Shown piece after piece: positions 33,762 through 45,662 of a DNA stretch of 64,000 bases. The notes below the pieces were generated by a model. It worked only from the letters and a program-made list of their open reading frames with translations, did no database searches and was not told the origin of the DNA. The DNA lies in assembly GCA_902796855.1 (NCBI GenBank), contig CADBQN010000006.1, forward strand, positions 892 through 64,891, given 5' to 3'. Both the position numbers and the translations under genes were made by a program. Source of the DNA: an uncultured Bacillota bacterium. GTDB lineage: Bacteria > Bacillota > Dehalobacteriia > UBA7702. Numbering within the stretch: the stretch's first letter is position 1; each line of letters opens with the position of its first letter.

Positions 33762-33952
33762 GGGCGAACGGTGTGAAAAAAAGCATATCCCACCCCGGAG
33801 GCCGCGCGCGGCGGGGCCCGGGCGGTACCTCATGCGAACGGCAGATCTCTTGACGCCGATCTGATTCGGAGAAACCCCAATTTCGTCGAGAGATAGCATG
33901 AGGACTACCGTCCGGATTGCGCCGCGCGGGCACCCGCGTTGAAGATAAAGAA

Positions 33953-33986
33953 ATCCACTCAGCCGAAAAGCCGAGTGGATTTTTTG
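33953..33986. terminator. Hairpin plus T-tract at left edge of low-GC island
   Basis: atccactc-agccgaaaagcc-gagtggat followed by tttttt. Confidence 0.5.
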
Positions 33987-34042
33987 ACTTTAAAGAACTG
34001 CCCCTTTGAAACTAACTCTTTATTCCGGGACGCGTCCCCTTT

Positions 34043-34265
34043 GGCGTGCCGTCGGAACCGCCTTTGGTGGTTTCATTGGTTTTTGGTGTGCTATCGGAAC
34101 CGTCCTCATCGGTTTCATCGGTTTTCGGCGTGCCAGCGGAACCGTCTTTGGTGGTTTCATTGGTTTTTGGCGTGCCATCGGAACCGTCTCCATTGGTTTC
34201 ATCGGTTTTTGGCGTGCCATCGGGATCGTCCCTGTTGGTTTGCTGTTGGTTTTCCCCGTTGGTTT
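34043..34265. repeat. Tandem array of five 42-bp repeats (GGCGTGCCATCGGAACCGTCTTTGGTGGTTTCATTGGTTTTT consensus), preceded by a GGGACGCGTCCC palindrome
   Basis: Units at 34043, 34085, 34127, 34169, 34211, last one 44 bp and degenerating; open in 4 of 6 frames; minus frame would read a KPMKP-rich 14-aa repeat from a TTG start. Confidence 0.8.
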
Positions 34266-34319
34266 AAGGGAATGTATCAAATAGTTAGCAAAAAGAGCTC
34301 TGAGGGTTCCACAAATAGG

Positions 34320-35477
34320 CTATATACTTTTCTTCCATTCTTTGTATAATTCGGCACATTTGGCAACACAAAAAGCTGAAAACAATAAACCACCGCCATT
34401 TCGTTTGTTATCTTTTTCAATCTGAACTTTGTACTGAGCTTTGATATCATTATCAGAGAAATCATCAAAATGTATTTTGAGATATTTGTCAAAATCATCC
34501 TTTTCCTGTGCGTCTTTAAAAATGAGAAGCTGATTGAAATTATTCTCACGACTGGAAATATCAAGTGACCCATGAGTAAAAAGCCGCAATAGTTTCCCCT
34601 CTATGGAATCCAACAAATAGCATGAATACCAAAAATCGTCTCTACCGGCTACAGCACAGGTTTTCGCTTTGGGAAGGTATTTTCGAAACCCATCAAAACA
34701 CCAAAGTTCCGTTTCATAAATAATTGTGTTATGAAACATGATGTTTAGTGGAGCAAGATGCATCTCCGGATCTGTATAAAATGCTGCGGGTGCCAACCAA
34801 TCAGGTTTCATTTTCCCGAATTGTTTTATTTGATACTCCGGAAAATCGGTATGGTAAGAGTAATTCTTATTACCCCAATCCATTTCCCAATTATCAATAT
34901 CATCCAATAATATCATTAACCGTTCTTTAGGAGGTCGATCAATACCGAAACGCTTTCGCCATAAATACTCTACATCATTCATATCAGCGTTTCCATCGAT
35001 TGCAGTGTTATTATCAACCACTCTCGTATAGATTCGATACGGAAGAACTGTTTTTCCAATCTTTTTACCGTCCGAAGATGTAATATTCCCATCTTGATAC
35101 GATTTTTCCAAATAATACGGAACATCAGATGTATTTTTTACAATAAGCACATCGATTTCATGATTTTCTATGGTAATTGTCCTCATTTCAATACGGGGTC
35201 TAACGCTTCCGGCATAGTGAATATTCCTTAAAATATTTACAACACGCTGTTGATCTCGCCTATTTGCATCGTTTTCCACGCCGAGGATTTCAAAGGTCTG
35301 ATCTCCAATACCAAAAATAATATATGCATCACGATCTGCCCGCGAATTTGCCATACAGGTTATATCATGAACAAGATCACCTTTATCATGATGATGCTCT
35401 CTTTTGAAATCCCACCAATCATCTTCACGTTGAGACTGTATCAGTTCTTCAATTACGGATGTTAAATCTTTTTCCAC
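34320..35477 (-). CDS. Schlafen/AlbA_2 (PF04326) domain protein with uncharacterised C-terminal domain, likely defence-associated
   Basis: N-terminus 'EELIQSQREDDWWDFKREHHHDKGDLVHDITCMANSRADRDAYIIFGIGD' fits AlbA_2 core; AT-rich codon usage; last gene of island operon. Confidence 0.55.
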   Translation of the reverse strand: MEKDLTSVIEELIQSQREDDWWDFKREHHHDKGDLVHDITCMANSRADRDAYIIFGIGDQTFEILGVENDANRRDQQRVVNILRNIHYAGSVRPRIEMRTITIENHEIDVLIVKNTSDVPYYLEKSYQDGNITSSDGKKIGKTVLPYRIYTRVVDNNTAIDGNADMNDVEYLWRKRFGIDRPPKERLMILLDDIDNWEMDWGNKNYSYHTDFPEYQIKQFGKMKPDWLAPAAFYTDPEMHLAPLNIMFHNTIIYETELWCFDGFRKYLPKAKTCAVAGRDDFWYSCYLLDSIEGKLLRLFTHGSLDISSRENNFNQLLIFKDAQEKDDFDKYLKIHFDDFSDNDIKAQYKVQIEKDNKRNGGGLLFSAFCVAKCAELYKEWKKSI

Positions 35478-35536
35478 AAAGATACCTCCTGACTATTATA
35501 AACAGGGATATTTCCAAACAAAGCCGTCCCTTTTAA

Positions 35537-38437
35537 TCAAAAGCTAAGGATATTGTTTAAAATAACAAGGTTAAAAATAAACTGTTTTTCCCCTTCTTTG
35601 AACTTCACATTAATATAACCCTTGTCAGTATCTTTTTTTGTAATCGTACCTTCGCCGAATTTTTTATGAGTTACCTTCATTCCGATTTTCATATCATCAA
35701 AAATTACTTCGGCATGATTTGTTTCGGCTTCGCTTGCTTTTTCAGTCTTTTCAGCAGTACCCTTTTTGCTGACCGTCTTATGTTGGCTTCGTATATCGGA
35801 ATCAGCTTCCACTGTTTTTTCTAAAGGCTTCGTCTCTTCTTCACGAAAAACCGGTTCAGACAGATCCATATCATTTTCCATTGTTGCCTGCTGATTGTAA
35901 AAAAGCTGCTGGTATTCTTCTTTTTTGATAACCGTGTCCCAACCGCCGACATCTTTTCCTTCGTGTTTATCTATACCTGTGTAAGAAAGACTGCTGTCCT
36001 CATACCGCTTAAATTTAAAAATAGCGTCATTCATCAAGCTCGCGTTGAACACTCCCAAAGCGCAGAGCAACTCAAAATCCTTTACGTCAAGACCGGTAAC
36101 TTTTTTGAAAAGTCCGGGTTCAAGCTGGGTAATTACATCTTTCAGGGTGCGCTCACGGTAATCCGTCAGATACATGAAAACCGGAATACGCGTGGCAAAT
36201 TTGATGAGCTTTTCCTGAATCTGCTTCCGCATGGATTTATATTCTTTTTCCTCTGCCGTAAGCTCTTTCTTTTCTTTCTTGGAAAGCTTATCTTCTCCCT
36301 CTTTCTTGGCTTTTTTAACCTTCTCCGATTTATTGATAATGGTCTCAATATCGCTGTTTAAGGAGCGGAACCCCTCAATATGCATCAGGGCGTTCAGCGC
36401 TTCTTCACTTGCCAGCAACCGGGAAAGCGTTTCATTATCTACATTCACCAGCAACGCGGACTCCCAGCGGCGCGCAAGCAAAGTAGCGGAAGTACCGGCA
36501 AGAGCAATATCAAGAACATCCTGCGCGGAAATCTGTTTCATGGTTGAACCGTCATAGGCCAGCACAGGCAGGAAGCTTATAAACTCCGCGACTTTCTTTT
36601 CAGGATTATCTTCATTGACGTTCAGGCGGCAGGAATAATCGGAAATCTGACGAAGCGCACGGTCAAGAGCAAAATCAAAAACATAGCATTCCTGCTTCAT
36701 TATCTGTTCTTTTCCCGCGTCGTCCTTTATTGTCCATGGCGACTGCACACGAAAAGCCGTTTGAAAATACGTTTCGGGGCTTTTCAGATTCCGCAGCATA
36801 AACACGCCTGTCCACGGTTTTATCGTGACGCCCGTTGTGAGTTTGCCGCAGGAAAGGGTAATTGTTTTTGTGGCAAGCGGATTATCCATCGCGTTTTGAA
36901 CAGGGCGCAAAGCATCAAGACCGATACCAGCCTGAGAACCGGCGCAGACAACAACTTTATAATCTCTGAAATAGTTATCCTGCATCAGAAGATTATTCAT
37001 TGCATAGCAGGCCGCGACATTCGGCAGAAACCAAAGCGTATGATTCAGCACCGCCAAAAGCCGGGCATCAGAAAAGGGCATCGGCGGTCGTTTATCCTGT
37101 CCCAGTTTCAAATCATCCACACTGGAAGGAAGATATGACCCGCGGATAAGCTGAAGCCATTTATAGACCTCGTTTTCATAAACGAATTTAGCATTTTCAA
37201 CGGTATCACCTTCCTGCACTTTCGCGGAGAAAAAAACATTCAGGTCAAATTCGTTAAATTCCCCGTTCAGTGCAATCTGGCGAATACTGTCCGGAATTTG
37301 ATAGGTGAGCATCACCATTCGAGGCAGAGCGAGATAGGGATTATCCGAACCTTTCCAGTTCTCTTTTGCTCTTTGCTCGTCTGAATAAGTCCAGTTATAA
37401 ATCTGATCTTCTATAAATTCACCGCTGTTAAGGGCGCGGAACGGAGTTCCGGACAGGAATAAATAATACTGCGTGGTAATGGGCAAAAATGTTTCGTTAT
37501 AGGCGTTATCCGCCTCATCCTTTTTATATTTTTCCTGGTCAAAGTCGGCCTCTGCCTCTTCATCGGGATTTTCAAAAAGCTTTTTTGCGTTTTCTCTCCA
37601 CGCTCCGAAATGGTACTCGTCAAAAACAACCAAATCCCAGTTGGCCGAGTGAATAAACTCATTCTTGGACTTGATGCCGCCGTTTTCATTCGTGCCCAAC
37701 AGGTCTTGAAACGAACCAAAGACAACAATCGGTCTGCTTTTATCCGCGTTGTCAAAGGCCTGATCGATATTGATATTCTGACCGTGCGCGTCTTTGTTTG
37801 ACACAAACTGCCATCCCTCAAAATCGGTATGGCCCGCCAAATCCTCCGCCCACGCGGATTCCACCGCCGGTTTAAAGGTAAGAACAAGAACTCTCTTTAA
37901 CCCCATCTTTTTTGCCAGCTCATAGGTGGCAAAGGTCTTGCCGAAACGCATTTTGCAGTTCCAGAGGAATTTCGGCGCGCGGGTGGGCTCGGCCTCCTCA
38001 GCCTGTTTAAAATAGCTCATCGCACGCTGAACGGCCTCTGCCTGTTCCGGACGCATTTGAAAAGACAGGGTTCTGTTTTCCGTGTTTTCCGTATTGTCCC
38101 GCACCGCAACAATCGCGGCTTTTACCGCGTCTAAATCACATTGGTACCATTCGTTTCGATCCGCTCCGGCGTTCAGCTGACGATACCCGCGCCGACGAAG
38201 GGCCGCATGAATGTCATGGTCAGTAAAACAGCTCCCATCAGGGCGCACAGCGGGTTCGGTCAGCACGATTTTATACGGTACAGCGGAAGTGTGCATCTGT
38301 TCTGCAACACGGGTCTCAGCGTCACGTTCGGTATATCCGATTTTCAGATAGCCCTTGTGGGACGCAACGCCGATAAGCTCATACGCATATATGGTTGGCG
38401 TTACTTCTGGACGAGGGGCGAAAAAATCAATAGCCAT
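35537..38437 (-). CDS. Fusion protein: N-terminal T5orf172 (GIY-YIG-superfamily) domain + SNF2-like SF2 helicase/ATPase + coiled-coil + C-terminal Tudor-like domain; putative restriction/effector subunit
   Basis: 'TIYAYELIGVASHKGYLKIGYTERDAETRVAEQ' = T5orf172; 'KMRFGKTFATYELA' (motif I), 'WDLVVFDEYHFGA' (motif II), 'LFLSGTPFRA' (SNF2 motif III); C-terminus 'MKVTHKKFGEGTITKK...INVKFKEGEKQF' like the UvrD/PcrA C-terminal Tudor. Confidence 0.65.
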   Translation of the reverse strand: MAIDFFAPRPEVTPTIYAYELIGVASHKGYLKIGYTERDAETRVAEQMHTSAVPYKIVLTEPAVRPDGSCFTDHDIHAALRRRGYRQLNAGADRNEWYQCDLDAVKAAIVAVRDNTENTENRTLSFQMRPEQAEAVQRAMSYFKQAEEAEPTRAPKFLWNCKMRFGKTFATYELAKKMGLKRVLVLTFKPAVESAWAEDLAGHTDFEGWQFVSNKDAHGQNINIDQAFDNADKSRPIVVFGSFQDLLGTNENGGIKSKNEFIHSANWDLVVFDEYHFGAWRENAKKLFENPDEEAEADFDQEKYKKDEADNAYNETFLPITTQYYLFLSGTPFRALNSGEFIEDQIYNWTYSDEQRAKENWKGSDNPYLALPRMVMLTYQIPDSIRQIALNGEFNEFDLNVFFSAKVQEGDTVENAKFVYENEVYKWLQLIRGSYLPSSVDDLKLGQDKRPPMPFSDARLLAVLNHTLWFLPNVAACYAMNNLLMQDNYFRDYKVVVCAGSQAGIGLDALRPVQNAMDNPLATKTITLSCGKLTTGVTIKPWTGVFMLRNLKSPETYFQTAFRVQSPWTIKDDAGKEQIMKQECYVFDFALDRALRQISDYSCRLNVNEDNPEKKVAEFISFLPVLAYDGSTMKQISAQDVLDIALAGTSATLLARRWESALLVNVDNETLSRLLASEEALNALMHIEGFRSLNSDIETIINKSEKVKKAKKEGEDKLSKKEKKELTAEEKEYKSMRKQIQEKLIKFATRIPVFMYLTDYRERTLKDVITQLEPGLFKKVTGLDVKDFELLCALGVFNASLMNDAIFKFKRYEDSSLSYTGIDKHEGKDVGGWDTVIKKEEYQQLFYNQQATMENDMDLSEPVFREEETKPLEKTVEADSDIRSQHKTVSKKGTAEKTEKASEAETNHAEVIFDDMKIGMKVTHKKFGEGTITKKDTDKGYINVKFKEGEKQFIFNLVILNNILSF

Positions 38438-38441
38438 ATTA

Positions 38442-40025
38442 TCACTCCAACTCCATCTTTGGTATTGACTCTTCTATAACTTTGACTTCGTGTTCATTCA
38501 ACCCATATTTTTCGTATAGTTTTTCATCCGTCCATCGAATAGAGAAGTCTTGAATTGGGACAAACTCATAAGCTTTTGGAGGCATGTCTTGTGTTGAGGT
38601 TTTTATAGCAACTAAAAACCTCAGAAATTTGGTTGATATATACGCCATTAAATTATCGGCTTCTTCTTTCGATAATCTTCTATCTGGCGGTAAAGCAACA
38701 ACATAAGTATTAGAACTACACGAATTCGGTGCACTAATTTTTGGCTTTCCAACTATGCTTCCACTTGGATTTCCTGAACGAGGAATTATTACTTTATATT
38801 TGTTAACTGCCTCTCTGTTCTTTGGGATGCTTTTTTCAGCGACATAACACATTCCGCCATGAATATACACTTTTACTTGTCTAGCGTTAGTAGGCTTTGA
38901 ACTCATAGCAATAAAGCTTTTCCCGTCCGCTGTCTGAATTAAACCGTCTTCTTTATTCCCGTTCCAGTCAACTTTTGTATGGAACCCGAAATATCTACCA
39001 GCATTTAGCCATTCAGATAATGAGGGTTCGTTAATCTTTTGAACCTTTTTCAAAACTGATATCTGGGCATCATTCCTTATAAAGGTTTCCATATCTTTTT
39101 CAAGCAATGGACGTTCAGTCATGCTGACATAATCTCCATCATGTGAAAAAACCTGACAAAGCCCTCTATTATCCCTATCCCATAGGAAATAACACACTCC
39201 ACCTTTTATCTCCACTCCAGGAAAGCAATCTGAGGCTGTAGGATAGTCGTGGATGACCCTTATTCTATCATCATGAAGCATGTCACTTCTAAATGAATCC
39301 AGCCCTCGTCCACCCATGAACCATCGAGCAGGGATAATCATGCAAAGATACTTTGGGGATAGTTTTTGCGCCTGTTGTACAAACTTTTGATATATCGGCA
39401 AAGCGCTTGCAGCATTACCTCCATCACTAAGATGATATGGAGGATTACTAATAATTACATCAAATTTCATATTAAATGCCTCCTGTGGCTTTAACATATG
39501 AATGAACTCATATGCATGAGTTTCCATAGTTTCGCCTCTATCCTCTTCTCCAAGAACAGTCTTATTGGAAATACCGCAATATATACAACGCCTATCTTTC
39601 CAATTATGTTGGATTTTTTTATACCTTATGTTTCCCTGAGCTGTGTCAAATCTCGTAACAGAGTATTCACTATTGGGGTACTTCGAACAGTAAATGCTTC
39701 TTCTAGATAGCAAGCTAGTCAACTCAGTAATAGCAATGCCATAGATCTGGTTTTGAAAGATATGGTCTATTCTTTCTTGCAAATCAGGGAATTGCCATTC
39801 TAATCCTTTTATCAAGCGTTTTGCTATCTCCCGAAGAAATACGCCACTTTTACAAGCAGGGTCAAGAAACTTCGTATCAGGATTTTCAAACAATTCCTGC
39901 GGGAGCATATCCAACATTGCATTGGCTATATCCGGCGGGGTAAAAACCTCATCATTTGAAAGATTCGCTAAACAAGTCAGAACATCAGGGTTATATATAT
40001 TTCCAAAAAGACCATTATCAGCCAT
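38442..40025 (-). CDS. Gamma-class N6-adenine DNA methyltransferase (Eco57I/TaqI-like) with C-terminal putative TRD
   Basis: Motif X 'DEVFTPPDIANAMLDML', motif I 'FLDPACKSGVFL', motif IV 'DVIISNPPYHLSD'. Confidence 0.8.
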   Translation of the reverse strand: MADNGLFGNIYNPDVLTCLANLSNDEVFTPPDIANAMLDMLPQELFENPDTKFLDPACKSGVFLREIAKRLIKGLEWQFPDLQERIDHIFQNQIYGIAITELTSLLSRRSIYCSKYPNSEYSVTRFDTAQGNIRYKKIQHNWKDRRCIYCGISNKTVLGEEDRGETMETHAYEFIHMLKPQEAFNMKFDVIISNPPYHLSDGGNAASALPIYQKFVQQAQKLSPKYLCMIIPARWFMGGRGLDSFRSDMLHDDRIRVIHDYPTASDCFPGVEIKGGVCYFLWDRDNRGLCQVFSHDGDYVSMTERPLLEKDMETFIRNDAQISVLKKVQKINEPSLSEWLNAGRYFGFHTKVDWNGNKEDGLIQTADGKSFIAMSSKPTNARQVKVYIHGGMCYVAEKSIPKNREAVNKYKVIIPRSGNPSGSIVGKPKISAPNSCSSNTYVVALPPDRRLSKEEADNLMAYISTKFLRFLVAIKTSTQDMPPKAYEFVPIQDFSIRWTDEKLYEKYGLNEHEVKVIEESIPKMELE

Positions 40026-40731
40026 TTTCTGTAATCCTCCTATAATGGATTAACGGATATTCGTTTACAGGTTTCGGAATAAGTTTCTTTGTAATGGGAT
40101 CAAATGTCCAATTATTATAATTCAGCGCAACATCGTCAAATAAATTTTGTTCTTCTGCGTAGTTACTCTTATTCGAATTTTCTTTCAAAAGAACATCCAA
40201 GCGGAAATCACGCCGTTTTATTCTCGCGTCGTTAAAAGGAAACGTCCATTCAGCGAAAATAATGGGGGTTTCTGTGTCCTGCTGGTTCTCATCAACACAC
40301 ATCAGGCTCAGGGCGTTTCCGCAAACGATATTCTTTTGCAGGATATACCGCGCGGCGGTTCTGGCCTCATCGTTGGCTTCCTTTTTGCAAACCGCCGTAT
40401 ATTCCGCGTCCCACAGGGCAAACAGATTTTCGCGGCATATTTCAGCGTTATCCGCTAAAATATCTACACCGTAAAGGCTCGTCAGCGCAAGAATGGCGTT
40501 TCGCTCATAATCATAGGCGCTTTTTTTGTATTTTGATTTTACCACCGCCAATTTACGGGAAAGAATCTCCGCAAGGAAAACGCCCTCGCCTACGGCAGGC
40601 TCTAAAAATCTTGAATCAATCCGCAGACATTCATCCGCTACCAAATCACACATGGCCTTTACTTCACGCTCAGCGGTAAATACTTCCCCGTGGTCAGATA
40701 TACGCTGTTTTGTTTTTACTTGCTTTGCCAA
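40018..40731 (-). CDS. N6-adenine MTase-like protein with motifs X and I but degenerate motif IV (NPPY -> GNAL); likely catalytically inactive paralog or partner
   Basis: 'HGEVFTAEREVKAMCDLV' (X), 'FLEPAVGEGVFL' (I), 'IVCGNALSL' in place of NPPY; 8-nt overlap with downstream MTase. Confidence 0.55.
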   Translation of the reverse strand: MAKQVKTKQRISDHGEVFTAEREVKAMCDLVADECLRIDSRFLEPAVGEGVFLAEILSRKLAVVKSKYKKSAYDYERNAILALTSLYGVDILADNAEICRENLFALWDAEYTAVCKKEANDEARTAARYILQKNIVCGNALSLMCVDENQQDTETPIIFAEWTFPFNDARIKRRDFRLDVLLKENSNKSNYAEEQNLFDDVALNYNNWTFDPITKKLIPKPVNEYPLIHYRRITENG

Positions 40732-40762
40732 AAGTATAAACCCCCATTTCGGTCAAAAAGGA

Positions 40763-41224
40763 TTATTTCATCACAACCGGAACCGTTTCCAGTCCGAGGC
40801 GTTTTGCCGCGCAGTATCGCAGGTATTCCCCTTCTAAAAGGTACTTTGAACCGTGACGCGAAACGACGAGCGGTTTTCCCAAATCGCCGTGGATTTTATA
40901 GTATGTCACCATCCGTTCAATCGCCGCTTCCGCCGGCTTTTCATAATTGGCGTTCACCCTTATGCTCTCAAGCGCGATAAACCATTTGCTGAATGACGCT
41001 TTTCTGTTTTTGACCGGTTTTCGCGTCTGAACAGGTTGAGACGTATCCTCTTTATAATAATCGCAGTGGCCCGCGCCATAGCAGCGGTCGGAATGTTTTA
41101 CGCAATAGGCGTTTTCTTTGCGATAAAAAATACATTTACTCCGGTGGCGGCGGTCGTCGTCTTCGCCCCGTGTGAATTTTTCCACATGCCACGGCGTACC
41201 GGTCAAACGATTCAGCCCGGTCAT
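40763..41224 (-). CDS. Zn-ribbon + ParB/Sulfiredoxin-like nuclease (ParBc) domain protein
   Basis: 'CIFYRKENAYCVKHSDRCYGAGHCDYY' Cys/His cluster; C-terminus 'LESIRVNANYEKP...LLEGEYLRYCAAKRLGLETVPVVM' matches ParB N-terminal domain; start ATG 41224 with AAAGAGGTG RBS. Confidence 0.6.
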   Translation of the reverse strand: MTGLNRLTGTPWHVEKFTRGEDDDRRHRSKCIFYRKENAYCVKHSDRCYGAGHCDYYKEDTSQPVQTRKPVKNRKASFSKWFIALESIRVNANYEKPAEAAIERMVTYYKIHGDLGKPLVVSRHGSKYLLEGEYLRYCAAKRLGLETVPVVMK

Positions 41225-41368
41225 CGCGAACACCTCTTTTCTCAAAAAACAAAACAATATAACAAAAAATATTCCAATTATATTAAATTCCACATATTTC
41301 CTCTTTTTCCTTCTTCCCCTCCCCTCACCCCTATTCTACCACCGTCCCGGTGACATTTTCGGGACATG

Positions 41369-42288: not shown

Positions 42289-45200
42289 TCACTTGATGAG
42301 GTTTTCCAGCGTCTCAAAGAGGAGCTCCGGTTCCACGGGCTTGCTCAGGTGCGCGTCGAGGCCCGCCTGCATGCTCCGCTGAACGTCCTCGTCAAAGGCG
42401 TTGGCGGTCAGGGCGATGATCGGGACGGTCTTCGCGTCGGCGCGGTCCATTTCCCGGATCGTCCGCGTCGCCTCGAGGCCGTCCATTTCCGGCATTCGCA
42501 TATCCATGAGGATGGCGTCGTAGTAGCCTTCCTCGTGTCCGCCGAACATCTCCACGGCGACTCTGCCGTTTTCGGCGTGCTCCACTTCCATCTCCCGCAT
42601 GGAAAGGACCATCATCATGATCTCGGCGTTGACCATGACGTCTTCCGCCAGCAGGACGCGGCGGCCCTTGAGATCGACGGTCTCCTCCACCAGCTTCGCG
42701 TTTTTCTTTTTAAAGGCCTCGCGGAACTCATCCATCACCGTCCCGGCGAAGAGGGGTTTTGCAACAAAAGTATCCACGCCGGCCTTACGGGCCTCTTCTT
42801 CAACCTCATCCCAGTTGTAGGAAGTCAGAATGATAATTGGCGTATGATTCCCAACGATAGCACGGATCTGCCTTGTCGTCTCCACACCATCCATTTCCGG
42901 CATCTTCCAGTCCACGAGAATCAAGTTGTAATCCTTCCGGCGGGTATGACGCATTTTGACCATTTCAATGGCGTCCTTGCCGGACAACACCATCTCACAA
43001 CTGATCCCAACCTGCTCAAGAATGATCTGGGCGTGTTCGCAGGCGATGCGGTCGTCGTCGACGACCAGCACGCTCATTTCGTGGGGGCGAATCTCAATGT
43101 CATCGTTGTCAGAAGCAATGTGACTCGACTGCCCCAGTGTAATGGTGACGGTAAACGTGGTTCCAACACCTTTTTCACTTTCCGCTTCAATATGGCCGTT
43201 CATCAGTTCTACAATATTTTTTGTGATGGGCATGCCCAGACCGGTGCTGCCATATTTATTGGTCGTAGACGAAGCCTCCTGTGAAAACACTTCGAACAGC
43301 TTAGGCAGATATTCCTTGCTCATGCCGATACCGGTATCGCTGATAGTACAGCGCAGCGTAGCATTGCCGTCCATCCTTGCCACATCTTTAATGATAAAGG
43401 TCACGGTACCATCTTCGGGTGTAAACTTGACAGCATTGCCCAGAATATTGATCATCACCTGGCGCAGTTTCATGTCGTCGCCGATATAATATTCGTCAAT
43501 CTGTCCCTCTGTCCGGCACTCGTAATGAATCCCTTTATCCCGGCACTGTCCGCTGATGATGGTGTTGACCTGTTCCAGCGTCTTGGAGAAGGAAAATTCC
43601 TCGTTCTTGATGGTCATCCGCCCGGACTCGATGCGGCTCATATCGAGGATGTCGTTGATGATGCCAAGCAGATGATGGGCCGAGGTGCCGATCTTTTCCA
43701 GATATTCCCGGGTCTGGGCGGAAATTTCCGGGTCGCTCAGCGCGATATTGTCCAGACCGATGATGGCGTTCATCGGCGTGCGGATCTCGTGGCTCATGTT
43801 GGAGAGAAAAGCGGTTTTCGCTTTGTTAGCCGCTTCCGCCTCTGCCAGTGCGTCCTGCAGTACCTGACTCTGCGTCATGGACTTGCGCGTTTCCAAATCC
43901 ACGTCTACGAAGCAGGCGCCAACGATATGCACCAGATGATCTATGCGGTCTTCCGGACGGCGCACCCCGGCGAAACGCACTTCCTCCCATGAATCCCGTC
44001 CATGCCGATGCACCATGTACCGATAGGCGATAACCCGTTGCTCCAGCAACAGGGCTTTTACGTTTTCCGGCTGAATGAAGCGCAGGAATTCCTCACGGTA
44101 TTCTTCCTTAATATTCGTGTTCGCATAGGCGGTCACGGCGGTAATATACCGGAAATGATCCCCAACACGGAAGCCGTTCTCAACGTCGCTGTGCGCCTGA
44201 TAGCACACTCCCTCGTCGTGATCCAGATCCAGATAATAGACGCTCCAATAGTCGGAAGCCAGCGCCGTAATCATGCGGGTCTGTTCTTCCTGCTGTTGCT
44301 TCTGCGCGAGCAGTTCTTCTTGTAACTGAATACGCTGTTCCATTTCTTCCCGCTTGATGCGGTTCTCGGCCTCGGCAGTTTCCCTTTCCAGTATAAGCTT
44401 CGAGTTTCTGCGGCTTTGCCGAACGATAAAAGTAAACAGCCCTAACATAACAGCGATGGTCAGCACCGACTGAATAACGCTCCTCCGAACGATACCAGCG
44501 GAAATGGTGCTGATGTTCTCACTGATCACGCTTTCCCGGATCAGATAGGTCAGACGCCAGTCCGTGCCTTTCACAGGAACATAGCTCAGCGTTTCCCGAA
44601 TACCATTGTAGGTGAAGCAGACCTCGCCGTTTTTTCCCGCGGTAAAATCCGACACAAATCCTTCATAGGAATAGCCCGGCTCAAATTCGGCGCTGCGCAT
44701 GGCTTCGAGCAGATTATCTTCCACGGCAAGACCGCCCAAGACCGTGTTGCTCAGGGCGATGCCGTTGCTGGTATAGATATTGCAGAAGGTCGCACCGTCT
44801 TCTTGGGCGTCCATGGAAACACCGGCAAGCATTTCATCCATGTCGATCTGCATGAAGCAGGCAACCAGTTCCGTATCGGCAAACTGAATGTGAGTGGGAA
44901 CGGCAATGATGACTTTTTTATCGGCACTCTCTAAATTCTCTACCAAAATTTCCGGTCCCTGCAGCATATGATAATCAAATTGGTACTGATTGATCTCTTC
45001 CTGCGGCCCGGTGGAGGTGTAAATCAAATCGTCGGCACCGACAAAAGCAAACCGCTCCAGATTAAAAAGTCGCTTGATCCGTACTTGATACGCCTGGAGA
45101 TGTGCGTTATCGCTCAGATCTTCTTCCGTCATCAGGTCCAAAGCCGTTTCGATGACATTGACTTTTTCCCGCATATTCCCCGCTACGACCTGCTCACGGC

Positions 45201-45366
45201 GACCCGCGAGCTCATCCAGATAGAGCAGGCTGACCGAACGAACGGCGGATTCAGTATCGCTTTTCGCACTGCGCCCCGTCCATATTGTACCAAGAAATAT
45301 GATAAGTAAAAGAATAAGACCCCCTATAATCGAGACAAGCGTTATCCTTTTTTTTCGATTTTCCAT
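42289..45366 (-). CDS. Hybrid sensor histidine kinase/response regulator (extracytoplasmic Cache-like sensor, HisKA, HATPase_c, two REC domains)
   Basis: '[18 protein letters not shown]' H-box; N/G1/G2 boxes; REC1 '[12 protein letters not shown]...[13 protein letters not shown]'; REC2 '[10 protein letters not shown]...[12 protein letters not shown]'; start ATG 45366. Confidence 0.85.
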
Positions 45367-45662
45367 TCGACAACACCCCTTTGACCCGATTCGCCGCGCG
45401 GACTCTTCTGCACCGCGGTTCGTTTCTGAAAATGAATTATGTTTTTTTATTCTTTGTTTTCGGTGTCCGCGCCATTCGCGCGAAACGTTCAAAGAACGGT
45501 ATCTGACCGTACACACATATTATACACAAAGGCGCAGGAAAATCCAATAGAAATTTGGAAAAAAAGGACAAAAGCCCATAAAAAAGCTCCCCCTTTCGGG
45601 GAAGCCTTTCCGCGGCTCCGCCGCTGACCGGGAAACCGAGGACCGGCGGACGGCGCCGCCGA

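Follow-up and report, generated by a model that had tools for sequence, protein, structure and literature searches.

A 64,000-nucleotide (nt) stretch of DNA from an uncultured Bacillota bacterium (Dehalobacteriia; UBA7702; assembly GCA_902796855.1, contig CADBQN010000006.1), here called the window, contains on its minus strand, at positions 35537..38437, an open reading frame (ORF) of 966 amino acids (aa) that probably encodes the R subunit of a three-gene, ATP-dependent restriction-modification (RM) system of Type I/ISP-like character, in which a T5orf172 domain replaces the PD-(D/E)xK nuclease. The domains of the protein, the conservation of their catalytic motifs, an operon whose three genes form a nearly invariant trio, a hypervariable recognition region in the methyltransferase, fused relatives, and a mobile and defence-associated context were all observed directly.

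Domain architecture of the 966-aa protein

The protein consists of four parts: a T5orf172/GIY-YIG-like domain, a superfamily 2 (SF2) ATPase, a helical domain, and a disordered linker with a Tudor domain. The gene and its parts are located in the window as follows:

35537..38437, minus strand: R-subunit candidate gene, ATG start, 966 aa, third and last gene of the operon
38099..38395, minus strand: T5orf172 / GIY-YIG-superfamily domain, aa 15-113
37403..38065, minus strand: ATPase lobe 1, aa ~125-345, with RPEQ motif, Walker A (NCKMRFGKT), DEYH and SGTP, from the structural model and conservation
36638..37402, minus strand: ATPase lobe 2 and the insertion between the lobes, aa ~346-600; motif V reads TLSCGKLTTGVT and motif VI YFQTAFRVQ
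35897..36637, minus strand: C-terminal helical domain, aa ~601-847, all-helical in the model
35708..35896, minus strand: disordered charged linker, aa 848-910, with a predicted local distance difference test score (pLDDT) of 29-38 and 19-28% identity to relatives
35558..35686, minus strand: UvrD/PcrA-type Tudor domain, aa ~918-960, from profile matches and the model

Residue conservation was counted over 58 aligned diverse relatives of the protein, and Pfam families were tallied in 50 diverse members. The same 58-member alignment was used for an AlphaFold2 model of the protein, which has a mean pLDDT of 78. The strings on which the original prediction for this ORF had been built are found at aa 17-47 (YAYELIGVASHKGYLKIGYTERDAETRVAEQ), 163-171 (MRFGKTFAT), 267-276 (WDLVVFDEYH) and 326-335 (LFLSGTPFRA).

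The N-terminal domain matches the Pfam family T5orf172 (PF10544) over aa 24-110 (E=5e-9; 37 bits against a cutoff of 20) and also MUG113; the T5orf172 profile is matched by 43 of the 50 relatives. It is modelled as beta-beta-alpha-beta-alpha-beta-alpha over aa 15-113, which is an alpha/beta fold of the GIY-YIG type. Tyrosine Y17 and lysine K32 are present in all 58 relatives, D73 in 57, E96 in 56, R43 in 54 and H77 in 51. Judged by the order of motifs, Y17 would be the tyrosine of GIY, K32 would occupy the YIG position, R43 would be the arginine of helix 1, and E96 the metal-binding glutamate. This conservation suggests that selection has kept the domain catalytic. Another T5orf172 protein, Gp88 of phage ICP1, has been described as an origin-directed nuclease (PMC8263062). 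When the T5orf172 domain alone was compared with plasmids by tblastn, all the annotated records among the matches listed were helicase or helicase-methylase genes.

The ATPase retains its motifs with few exceptions. In motif I (AxxxxGKT), K162, G166 and K167 are each found in 58/58 relatives, as are D273 and E274 of motif II (DEYH; H276 in 57/58), T331 of motif III (SGTP), and Y557, Q559 and F562 of motif VI (YFQxAFRxQ; R563 in 57/58). Two RecA-like lobes are modelled, with an insertion of ~130 residues separating motifs III and IV. Between motifs II and III there is also an acidic disordered insert (ENPDEEAEADFDQEKYKKDEADNAYNE...; aa 278-316, window positions 37490-37606) of low model confidence and with no conserved consensus residues. 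The lobe 1 region matches Pfam ResIII in 41 of the 50 relatives, and six of the 50 match SNF2-rel_dom (PF00176) at E<=0.01 (best 3.7e-5); the query itself has no match to PF00176 at E<=0.1 and lies below the threshold of that family, and in two fused relatives that were scanned the SNF2-rel_dom matches fall below the gathering score. A Foldseek search with the model ranks ZorD, ISWI, ALC1 and the HsdR subunit of EcoR124I together, the alignment to the last of these extending over ~810 columns, and the two-lobe motor is structurally similar to SNF2 remodellers. Thus, the motor is an SF2 ATPase of the double-stranded DNA translocase type, about equally near to HsdR and SNF2 and clearly further from Type III Res. 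NAP1 proteins matched in the PDB search with the single query were dismissed as chance matches to a lysine/glutamate-rich coiled segment.

The helical domain corresponds in position and fold type to the helical domain of HsdR. Its identity to relatives (69-89% over aa 601-825) is so much higher than that of the nuclease domain (40-59%) that it is a good candidate for a subunit interface, and it is presumed to be the docking surface for the methyltransferase subunits.

The Tudor tail was recognized from homologous tails rather than from the query alone, which scores 17.5-22.4 bits (E=0.0036) against PcrA_UvrD_tudor (PF21196), under the cutoff of 23.9. The same profile is matched by 14 of 15 homologous tails (best E=3.6e-6), a profile of the tails finds structures of the C-terminal domain of Escherichia coli UvrD (7egs_B, E=5.2e-5; 6yi2_A, E=9e-5), the NCBIfam model of DNA helicase II is matched at its extreme C-terminus (positions 648-717, E=6e-4), and a small beta-barrel is modelled at aa 921-954 with pLDDT above 90. 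Of 80 species loci, 26 gave a tblastn match to the Tudor domain, and relatives of ~840-860 aa do without it; it is an accessory of part of the family, confined to a gut-associated branch. RNA polymerase and UvrB are the established partners of the UvrD/PcrA Tudor domain, and by analogy the tail may, speculatively, tether the enzyme to one of them. The gene is a mosaic in guanine-plus-cytosine (GC) content, from ~50-53% in its 5' third, which encodes the nuclease domain and ATPase lobe 1, to 36-39% in the linker and Tudor tail; the low GC of the tail, together with its absence from most relatives, is consistent with its separate acquisition.

The original prediction had assigned the N-terminus to the T5orf172/MUG113 fold and the C-terminus to a UvrD/PcrA-like Tudor domain, and both assignments are borne out. 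It had also proposed that a predicted structure be inspected for the GIY-YIG core, the residues of which proved to be conserved. Nor did the homologues turn out to be uniformly annotated and characterised as Type III Res, the other outcome that it had named as a refutation. Its description of the helicase motifs as SNF2-style rather than Type I/III Res-style holds as far as structural likeness to SNF2 is concerned, but not as an exclusion, HsdR being equally near in structure and ResIII matching 41 relatives against six for SNF2.

A conserved operon with a methyltransferase and its truncated paralogue

Upstream of the R-subunit candidate gene are two others on the same strand:

40018..40731, minus strand: first gene, encoding a 237-aa truncated paralogue of the N-terminus of the methyltransferase, with motifs X and I kept and no NPPY-type motif
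38442..40025, minus strand: second gene, encoding a 527-aa Eco57I-family gamma-class N6-adenine methyltransferase with NPPY and a C-terminal recognition region
38676..39125, minus strand: hypervariable segment of the methyltransferase, aa ~301-450, presumed target-recognition domain

The stop codon of the small gene overlaps the start of the methyltransferase gene by 8 nt, 4 nt lie between the methyltransferase stop and the start of the R gene, and GGAG precedes that start. The gene order of the window (small gene, methyltransferase, helicase) recurs in 56 of the 58 best species-representative loci that have at least 2.4 kb of upstream DNA, and the methyltransferase gene is present in the other two; the arrangement persists down to 29-32% identity. 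The three genes encode conserved, translationally coupled subunits. The 966-aa protein, called an effector in the original prediction, does not stand alone, and that prediction had overlooked the dead methyltransferase paralogue.

The 527-aa protein matches Pfam Eco57I (E=8.7e-34) and N6_Mtase (E=1.6e-8) and the PADLOC profile MTase_II (E=8e-50); the order of its motifs (X, I ... NPPY) points to the gamma class. The NPPY class motif is present in 76 of 82 relatives, the other six presumably being fragments at contig ends. Identity to relatives is 52-85% over aa 1-300 but only 11-36% over aa 301-450, which, set against the conservation of the R subunit, is taken as the pattern of diversification expected of restriction specificity. 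No phase-variable or invertible cassettes for recognition domains could be recognized near the methyltransferase gene, where only short chance repeats were found.

The 237-aa protein is 27% identical to the N-terminus of the methyltransferase (E=3e-8) and has a weak Pfam match to MmeI_Mtase. Among 71 relatives of this small protein, none has (N/D/S)PP(Y/F/W/H) and 67 have the motif I pattern. It accompanies both split and fused forms of the other two proteins. With motifs for binding of S-adenosylmethionine (SAM) but no catalytic loop, its sequence suggests a SAM-sensing or scaffolding partner.

Distribution, fused forms and mobile elements

The public databases already contain a protein identical to the 966-aa query, and retrieval of its close homologues gave more than 8000. 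The source names seen among them were limited to 'hypothetical protein' (JGI) and 'GIY-YIG nuclease family protein' (NCBI); the family has thus been labelled generically by automatic annotation. When representatives at 50% identity were searched exhaustively, 4294 clusters matched at E<=1e-3, of which 1124 also did so at E<=1e-30, with a common core corresponding to query residues ~15-845. One genome per species was scanned, and relatives are encoded in at least 589 stretches. The hosts belong to Bacillota, Bacteroidota, Fibrobacterota, Spirochaetota, Pseudomonadota, Verrucomicrobiota, Chloroflexota, Actinomycetota and others, with one bin labelled Heimdallarchaeota, and relatives from different phyla are 60-77% identical.

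On plasmids of Enterococcus, Lactococcus, Lactobacillus and others, the R protein and the methyltransferase are joined into one chain of ~1450 aa. The representatives P0250 and P0269 are T5orf172-ResIII-Eco57I fusions as well. The REBASE-derived PADLOC profile PDLC03626 'REase_MTase_IIG' ('Type IIG restriction enzyme-methyltransferase') likewise spans both proteins of the window, matching the helicase at profile positions 152-798 (E=9e-34) and the methyltransferase at positions 863-1359 (E=6.7e-48). A complete trio is carried by the 64.8-kb genome of a temperate phage from human faeces (Ca. Heliusvirales; PV036449.1, locus L092, 4682-9913).

In 18 of 56 loci, more than 300 nt lie between the methyltransferase gene and the R gene. 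The contents were read in three of them (L074, 4991-6004; L067, 3131-5992; L015, 4954-5982) and comprise RhuM, DUF1016/YhcG, Bro-N or HEPN_Apea genes, or an insertion sequence. Type I operons, too, have been reported to carry RhuM and DUF1016 genes between their core genes (PMC9881135). Genes found beside relatives include GmrSD, NACHT, Fic, BrxA and toxin-antitoxin genes. In one relative, genes for an HTH_3 regulator and BrxA lie directly upstream of the trio (L001, 6780-7575), which hints at regulation or at parts in common with BREX-type systems.

Genomic neighbourhood in the window

The trio is located in an island of low GC content (~34000-41300; 36-50% GC against ~60% around it) that was horizontally acquired. 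Other features of the island are:

33951..33982, minus strand: strong terminator-like hairpin with a 14-bp stem, from a consensus scan only
34320-35477, minus strand: PDC-S50 gene, 385 aa, with a Schlafen/AlbA_2 domain and an end-to-end match to the PADLOC defence candidate of that name (E=1.9e-110)
40763-41293, minus strand: 176-aa ORF just upstream of the operon, weakly similar at its C-terminus to the ParB N-terminal domain (E=0.013, below threshold)

Between the helicase gene and the PDC-S50 gene downstream of it there are 59 nt; the PDC-S50 gene has an AGGAGG ribosome-binding site of its own and GTG as start codon, and the hairpin beyond it probably ends the transcription unit. The PDC-S50 gene, the 176-aa ORF and a GNAT gene were considered as parts of the system and rejected, none of them adjoining the trio in 91 related loci. 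At the edge of the island, positions 34040-34249 hold ~5 tandem copies of a 42-nt unit, the minus strand of which would encode a DSTPKTNETTKGGS-like repeat rich in serine, threonine and proline; the ORFs overlapping these copies have no Pfam match. Just outside the island, a 1075-aa hybrid sensor histidine kinase with two receiver domains, as read from its translation, is encoded on the minus strand at 42289-45516, where the GC content (~48-60%) is between those of the island and the host. The window contains no tRNA genes, and a search for repeats flanking the island found none that were convincing.

Proposed mechanism and alternative explanations

From this architecture we infer complex formation, translocation, cleavage and protection by methylation, as well as roles for the small subunit and the Tudor tail. 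The Eco57I-family methyltransferase would read a short target by means of its variable C-terminal region and methylate adenine on host DNA. At an unmethylated target in invading DNA, it would recruit or activate the R subunit through the conserved C-terminal helical domain of the latter, the SF2 motor would hydrolyse ATP and travel along double-stranded DNA, and the T5orf172 domain would nick or cut away from the site, for example upon stalling or collision. The 237-aa paralogue would be an obligatory third subunit, perhaps SAM-sensing or scaffolding, and the Tudor tail would hold it to a binding partner, for instance RNA polymerase or UvrB. The order of events in the original prediction, an enzyme that translocates and then nicks or cleaves, thus also appears to be the best reading here. 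A bolder proposal, which we consider rather unlikely as a whole, is that these systems are a distinct and widespread class in which a GIY-YIG-superfamily nuclease is combined with an obligatory dead SAM-binding paralogue that controls the motor (for example by responding to the loss of SAM to phage SAM-degrading enzymes) and, in the gut branch, with a Tudor tail that links restriction to RNA polymerase, either to direct it at invader DNA under transcription or to resolve collisions between motor and polymerase.

Several points weigh against an ATP-dependent restriction enzyme of Type I/ISP-like character. The second tyrosine of GIY-YIG is apparently a lysine (K32), an assignment that follows motif order without a residue-level alignment, and no Pfam Helicase_C match was found for lobe 2. 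No HsdR, Type ISP or Res chain was found by sequence and profile searches of the PDB, so that kinship to these enzymes is structural only. No precedent explains the third (237-aa) subunit, and the present data do not distinguish true translocation from a Type III-like ATP switch. A literature search on T5orf172, MUG113 or GIY-YIG domains with a helicase and a methyltransferase found no experimental study of any member of the family. The nearest studied trio in architecture, DnmA (YeeA)-YeeB-YeeC of Bacillus subtilis, showed no restriction or phage protection (PMC9973331; PMC7261158). Mutations of its homologues in Vibrio crassostreae reportedly raise sensitivity to some phages (PMC9973331).

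Among the alternatives, a Type III-like enzyme is the least improbable, though still unlikely: ATP would switch the complex to a sliding state, with no translocation, and cleavage would require two sites as in EcoP15I. The core genes are in mod-then-res order, ResIII is the Pfam family matched by 41 of 50 relatives, and the recognition region is part of the methyltransferase instead of a separate S subunit, all of which agree with such an enzyme; identity with Type III Res itself was rejected on domain order, nuclease family and methyltransferase class. Somewhat less probable again is an inactive or decaying relic, the methyltransferase of which would be left as an orphan with an epigenetic role like that proposed for B. 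subtilis DnmA. The lack of a phenotype for the B. subtilis trio and the horizontal acquisition of the island speak for a relic, but here none of the three ORFs is broken, no catalytic motif is missing, the coupling of the genes is tight, and the identity of 60-77% across phyla suggests purifying selection and recent mobility.

The conserved residues of the nuclease domain bear on a further alternative, methylation-guided defence without cleavage as reported for BREX, in which the T5orf172 domain would be a DNA-binding or regulatory module. Some T5orf172 proteins have been described as domesticated regulators (PMC8096241), and a BrxA gene is located just upstream of the trio in one relative; however, the putative catalytic residues Y17, K32, R43, H77 and E96 are kept in 51-58 of 58 relatives, and no other BREX components were found with Pfam or PADLOC, and we give this explanation little credence. 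Least credible of all is a housekeeping factor for transcription-coupled repair or R-loops, brought to RNA polymerase by the Tudor domain. It would fit the UvrD/PcrA type of that domain and a RapA-like stretch around motif II, a short and weak PDB profile match that was set aside as not significant (E=0.03), but most of the family is without a Tudor domain, the linkage to a methyltransferase with a hypervariable recognition region is strict, and the distribution over islands, plasmids and phage is patchy.

Significance

The interest of the Type I/ISP-like system lies in the size of an uncharacterised family and in its two unexplained accessories, not in a new principle. RM relatives that have helicase subunits and GIY-YIG nucleases have been noted in passing and called uncharacterised (PMC2731913; PMC3553950). 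No biochemical study of an ATP-dependent restriction enzyme with a GIY-YIG-superfamily nuclease was found in the literature, and a term search of the 2025 EcoSal review of host-dependent restriction located no passage on such systems. Characterisation of one member would add a new combination of nuclease and motor to the picture of Type I, ISP and III enzymes, would test how freely restriction motors swap nuclease modules in the evolution of RM systems, and could explain the conserved dead methyltransferase subunit and the Tudor tail. In gut Clostridia and Bacteroidales the system is likely to impede DNA transfer, and it offers new methylation specificities.

Comparison with known systems

Trios of the DnmA-YeeB-YeeC type occur in defence islands, have a gamma-class methyltransferase and have been proposed to be 'Type I-like' (PMC2731913; PMC9973331; PMC7261158). 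By comparison of their lists of parts, they resemble the operon in the window in having a methyltransferase with built-in specificity, an SF2 helicase and a T5orf172 domain in one conserved operon. They differ in that the helicase and the T5orf172 domain are on separate proteins, the latter at the C-terminus of YeeC, whereas here they are fused; in that the methyltransferase is MmeI-like rather than Eco57I-like; and in that no small dead-methyltransferase subunit has been described for them.

The Hma system comprises the Swi2/Snf2 helicase-nuclease HmaA, the methylase HmaB and the ATPase HmaC, and requires nickase activity for defence (PMC11232893). It likewise pairs a methylase with a fusion of an Snf2-like motor and a nuclease in a defence operon, but the nuclease of HmaA is a C-terminal PD-(D/E)xK domain and the third gene encodes an ATPase. 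None of four proteins matched a PADLOC hma model, and membership of Hma, BREX, DISARM or MADS was rejected on PADLOC and NCBIfam searches that gave only weak generic methyltransferase matches.

With Type III Res (EcoP15I, PDB 4zcf), the 966-aa protein shares the position of an ATP-dependent R subunit downstream of a methyltransferase, and an N-lobe in Pfam ResIII. In the Type III enzymes, however, a helicase is followed by a C-terminal PD-(D/E)xK nuclease and accompanied by a beta-class Mod, so that domain order, nuclease and methyltransferase (gamma-class Eco57I here) all differ. The original prediction regarded the nuclease-first order as the reverse of classical Res subunits, which is true only of Type III; Type I HsdR and Type ISP enzymes also have the nuclease first. 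This argument and that for SNF2 over Res both overstate the oddity of the protein.

With Type I HsdR the protein shares the order of nuclease, RecA1, RecA2 and helical domain, and its motor has an HsdR-like fold (EcoR124I, PDB 2w00; putative HsdR fragment, 3h1t). The nuclease of HsdR is a PD-(D/E)xK domain, whereas that of the 966-aa protein is T5orf172, with no HSDR_N match; there is no HsdS gene, the recognition region being within an Eco57I-family methyltransferase; the third subunit is a dead methyltransferase paralogue; and the HsdR chains in the PDB have no detectable sequence similarity to the protein. Type ISP enzymes (LlaGI / LlaBIII, PDB 4xqk) are single polypeptides with an Mrr-type nuclease instead of T5orf172, whereas the window form is split, M then R, with an extra small subunit, although fused relatives exist. 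The fused relative from Lactococcus was considered as LlaGI/LlaBIII, and this was rejected on the lack of a PDB sequence match. The protein would thus work like Type I HsdR or Type ISP enzymes, yet it departs from them in nuclease family, subunits and sequence similarity; what is new is the exchange of the nuclease in an ATP-dependent restriction system, together with an additional dead-methylase subunit and, in one branch, a Tudor tail.

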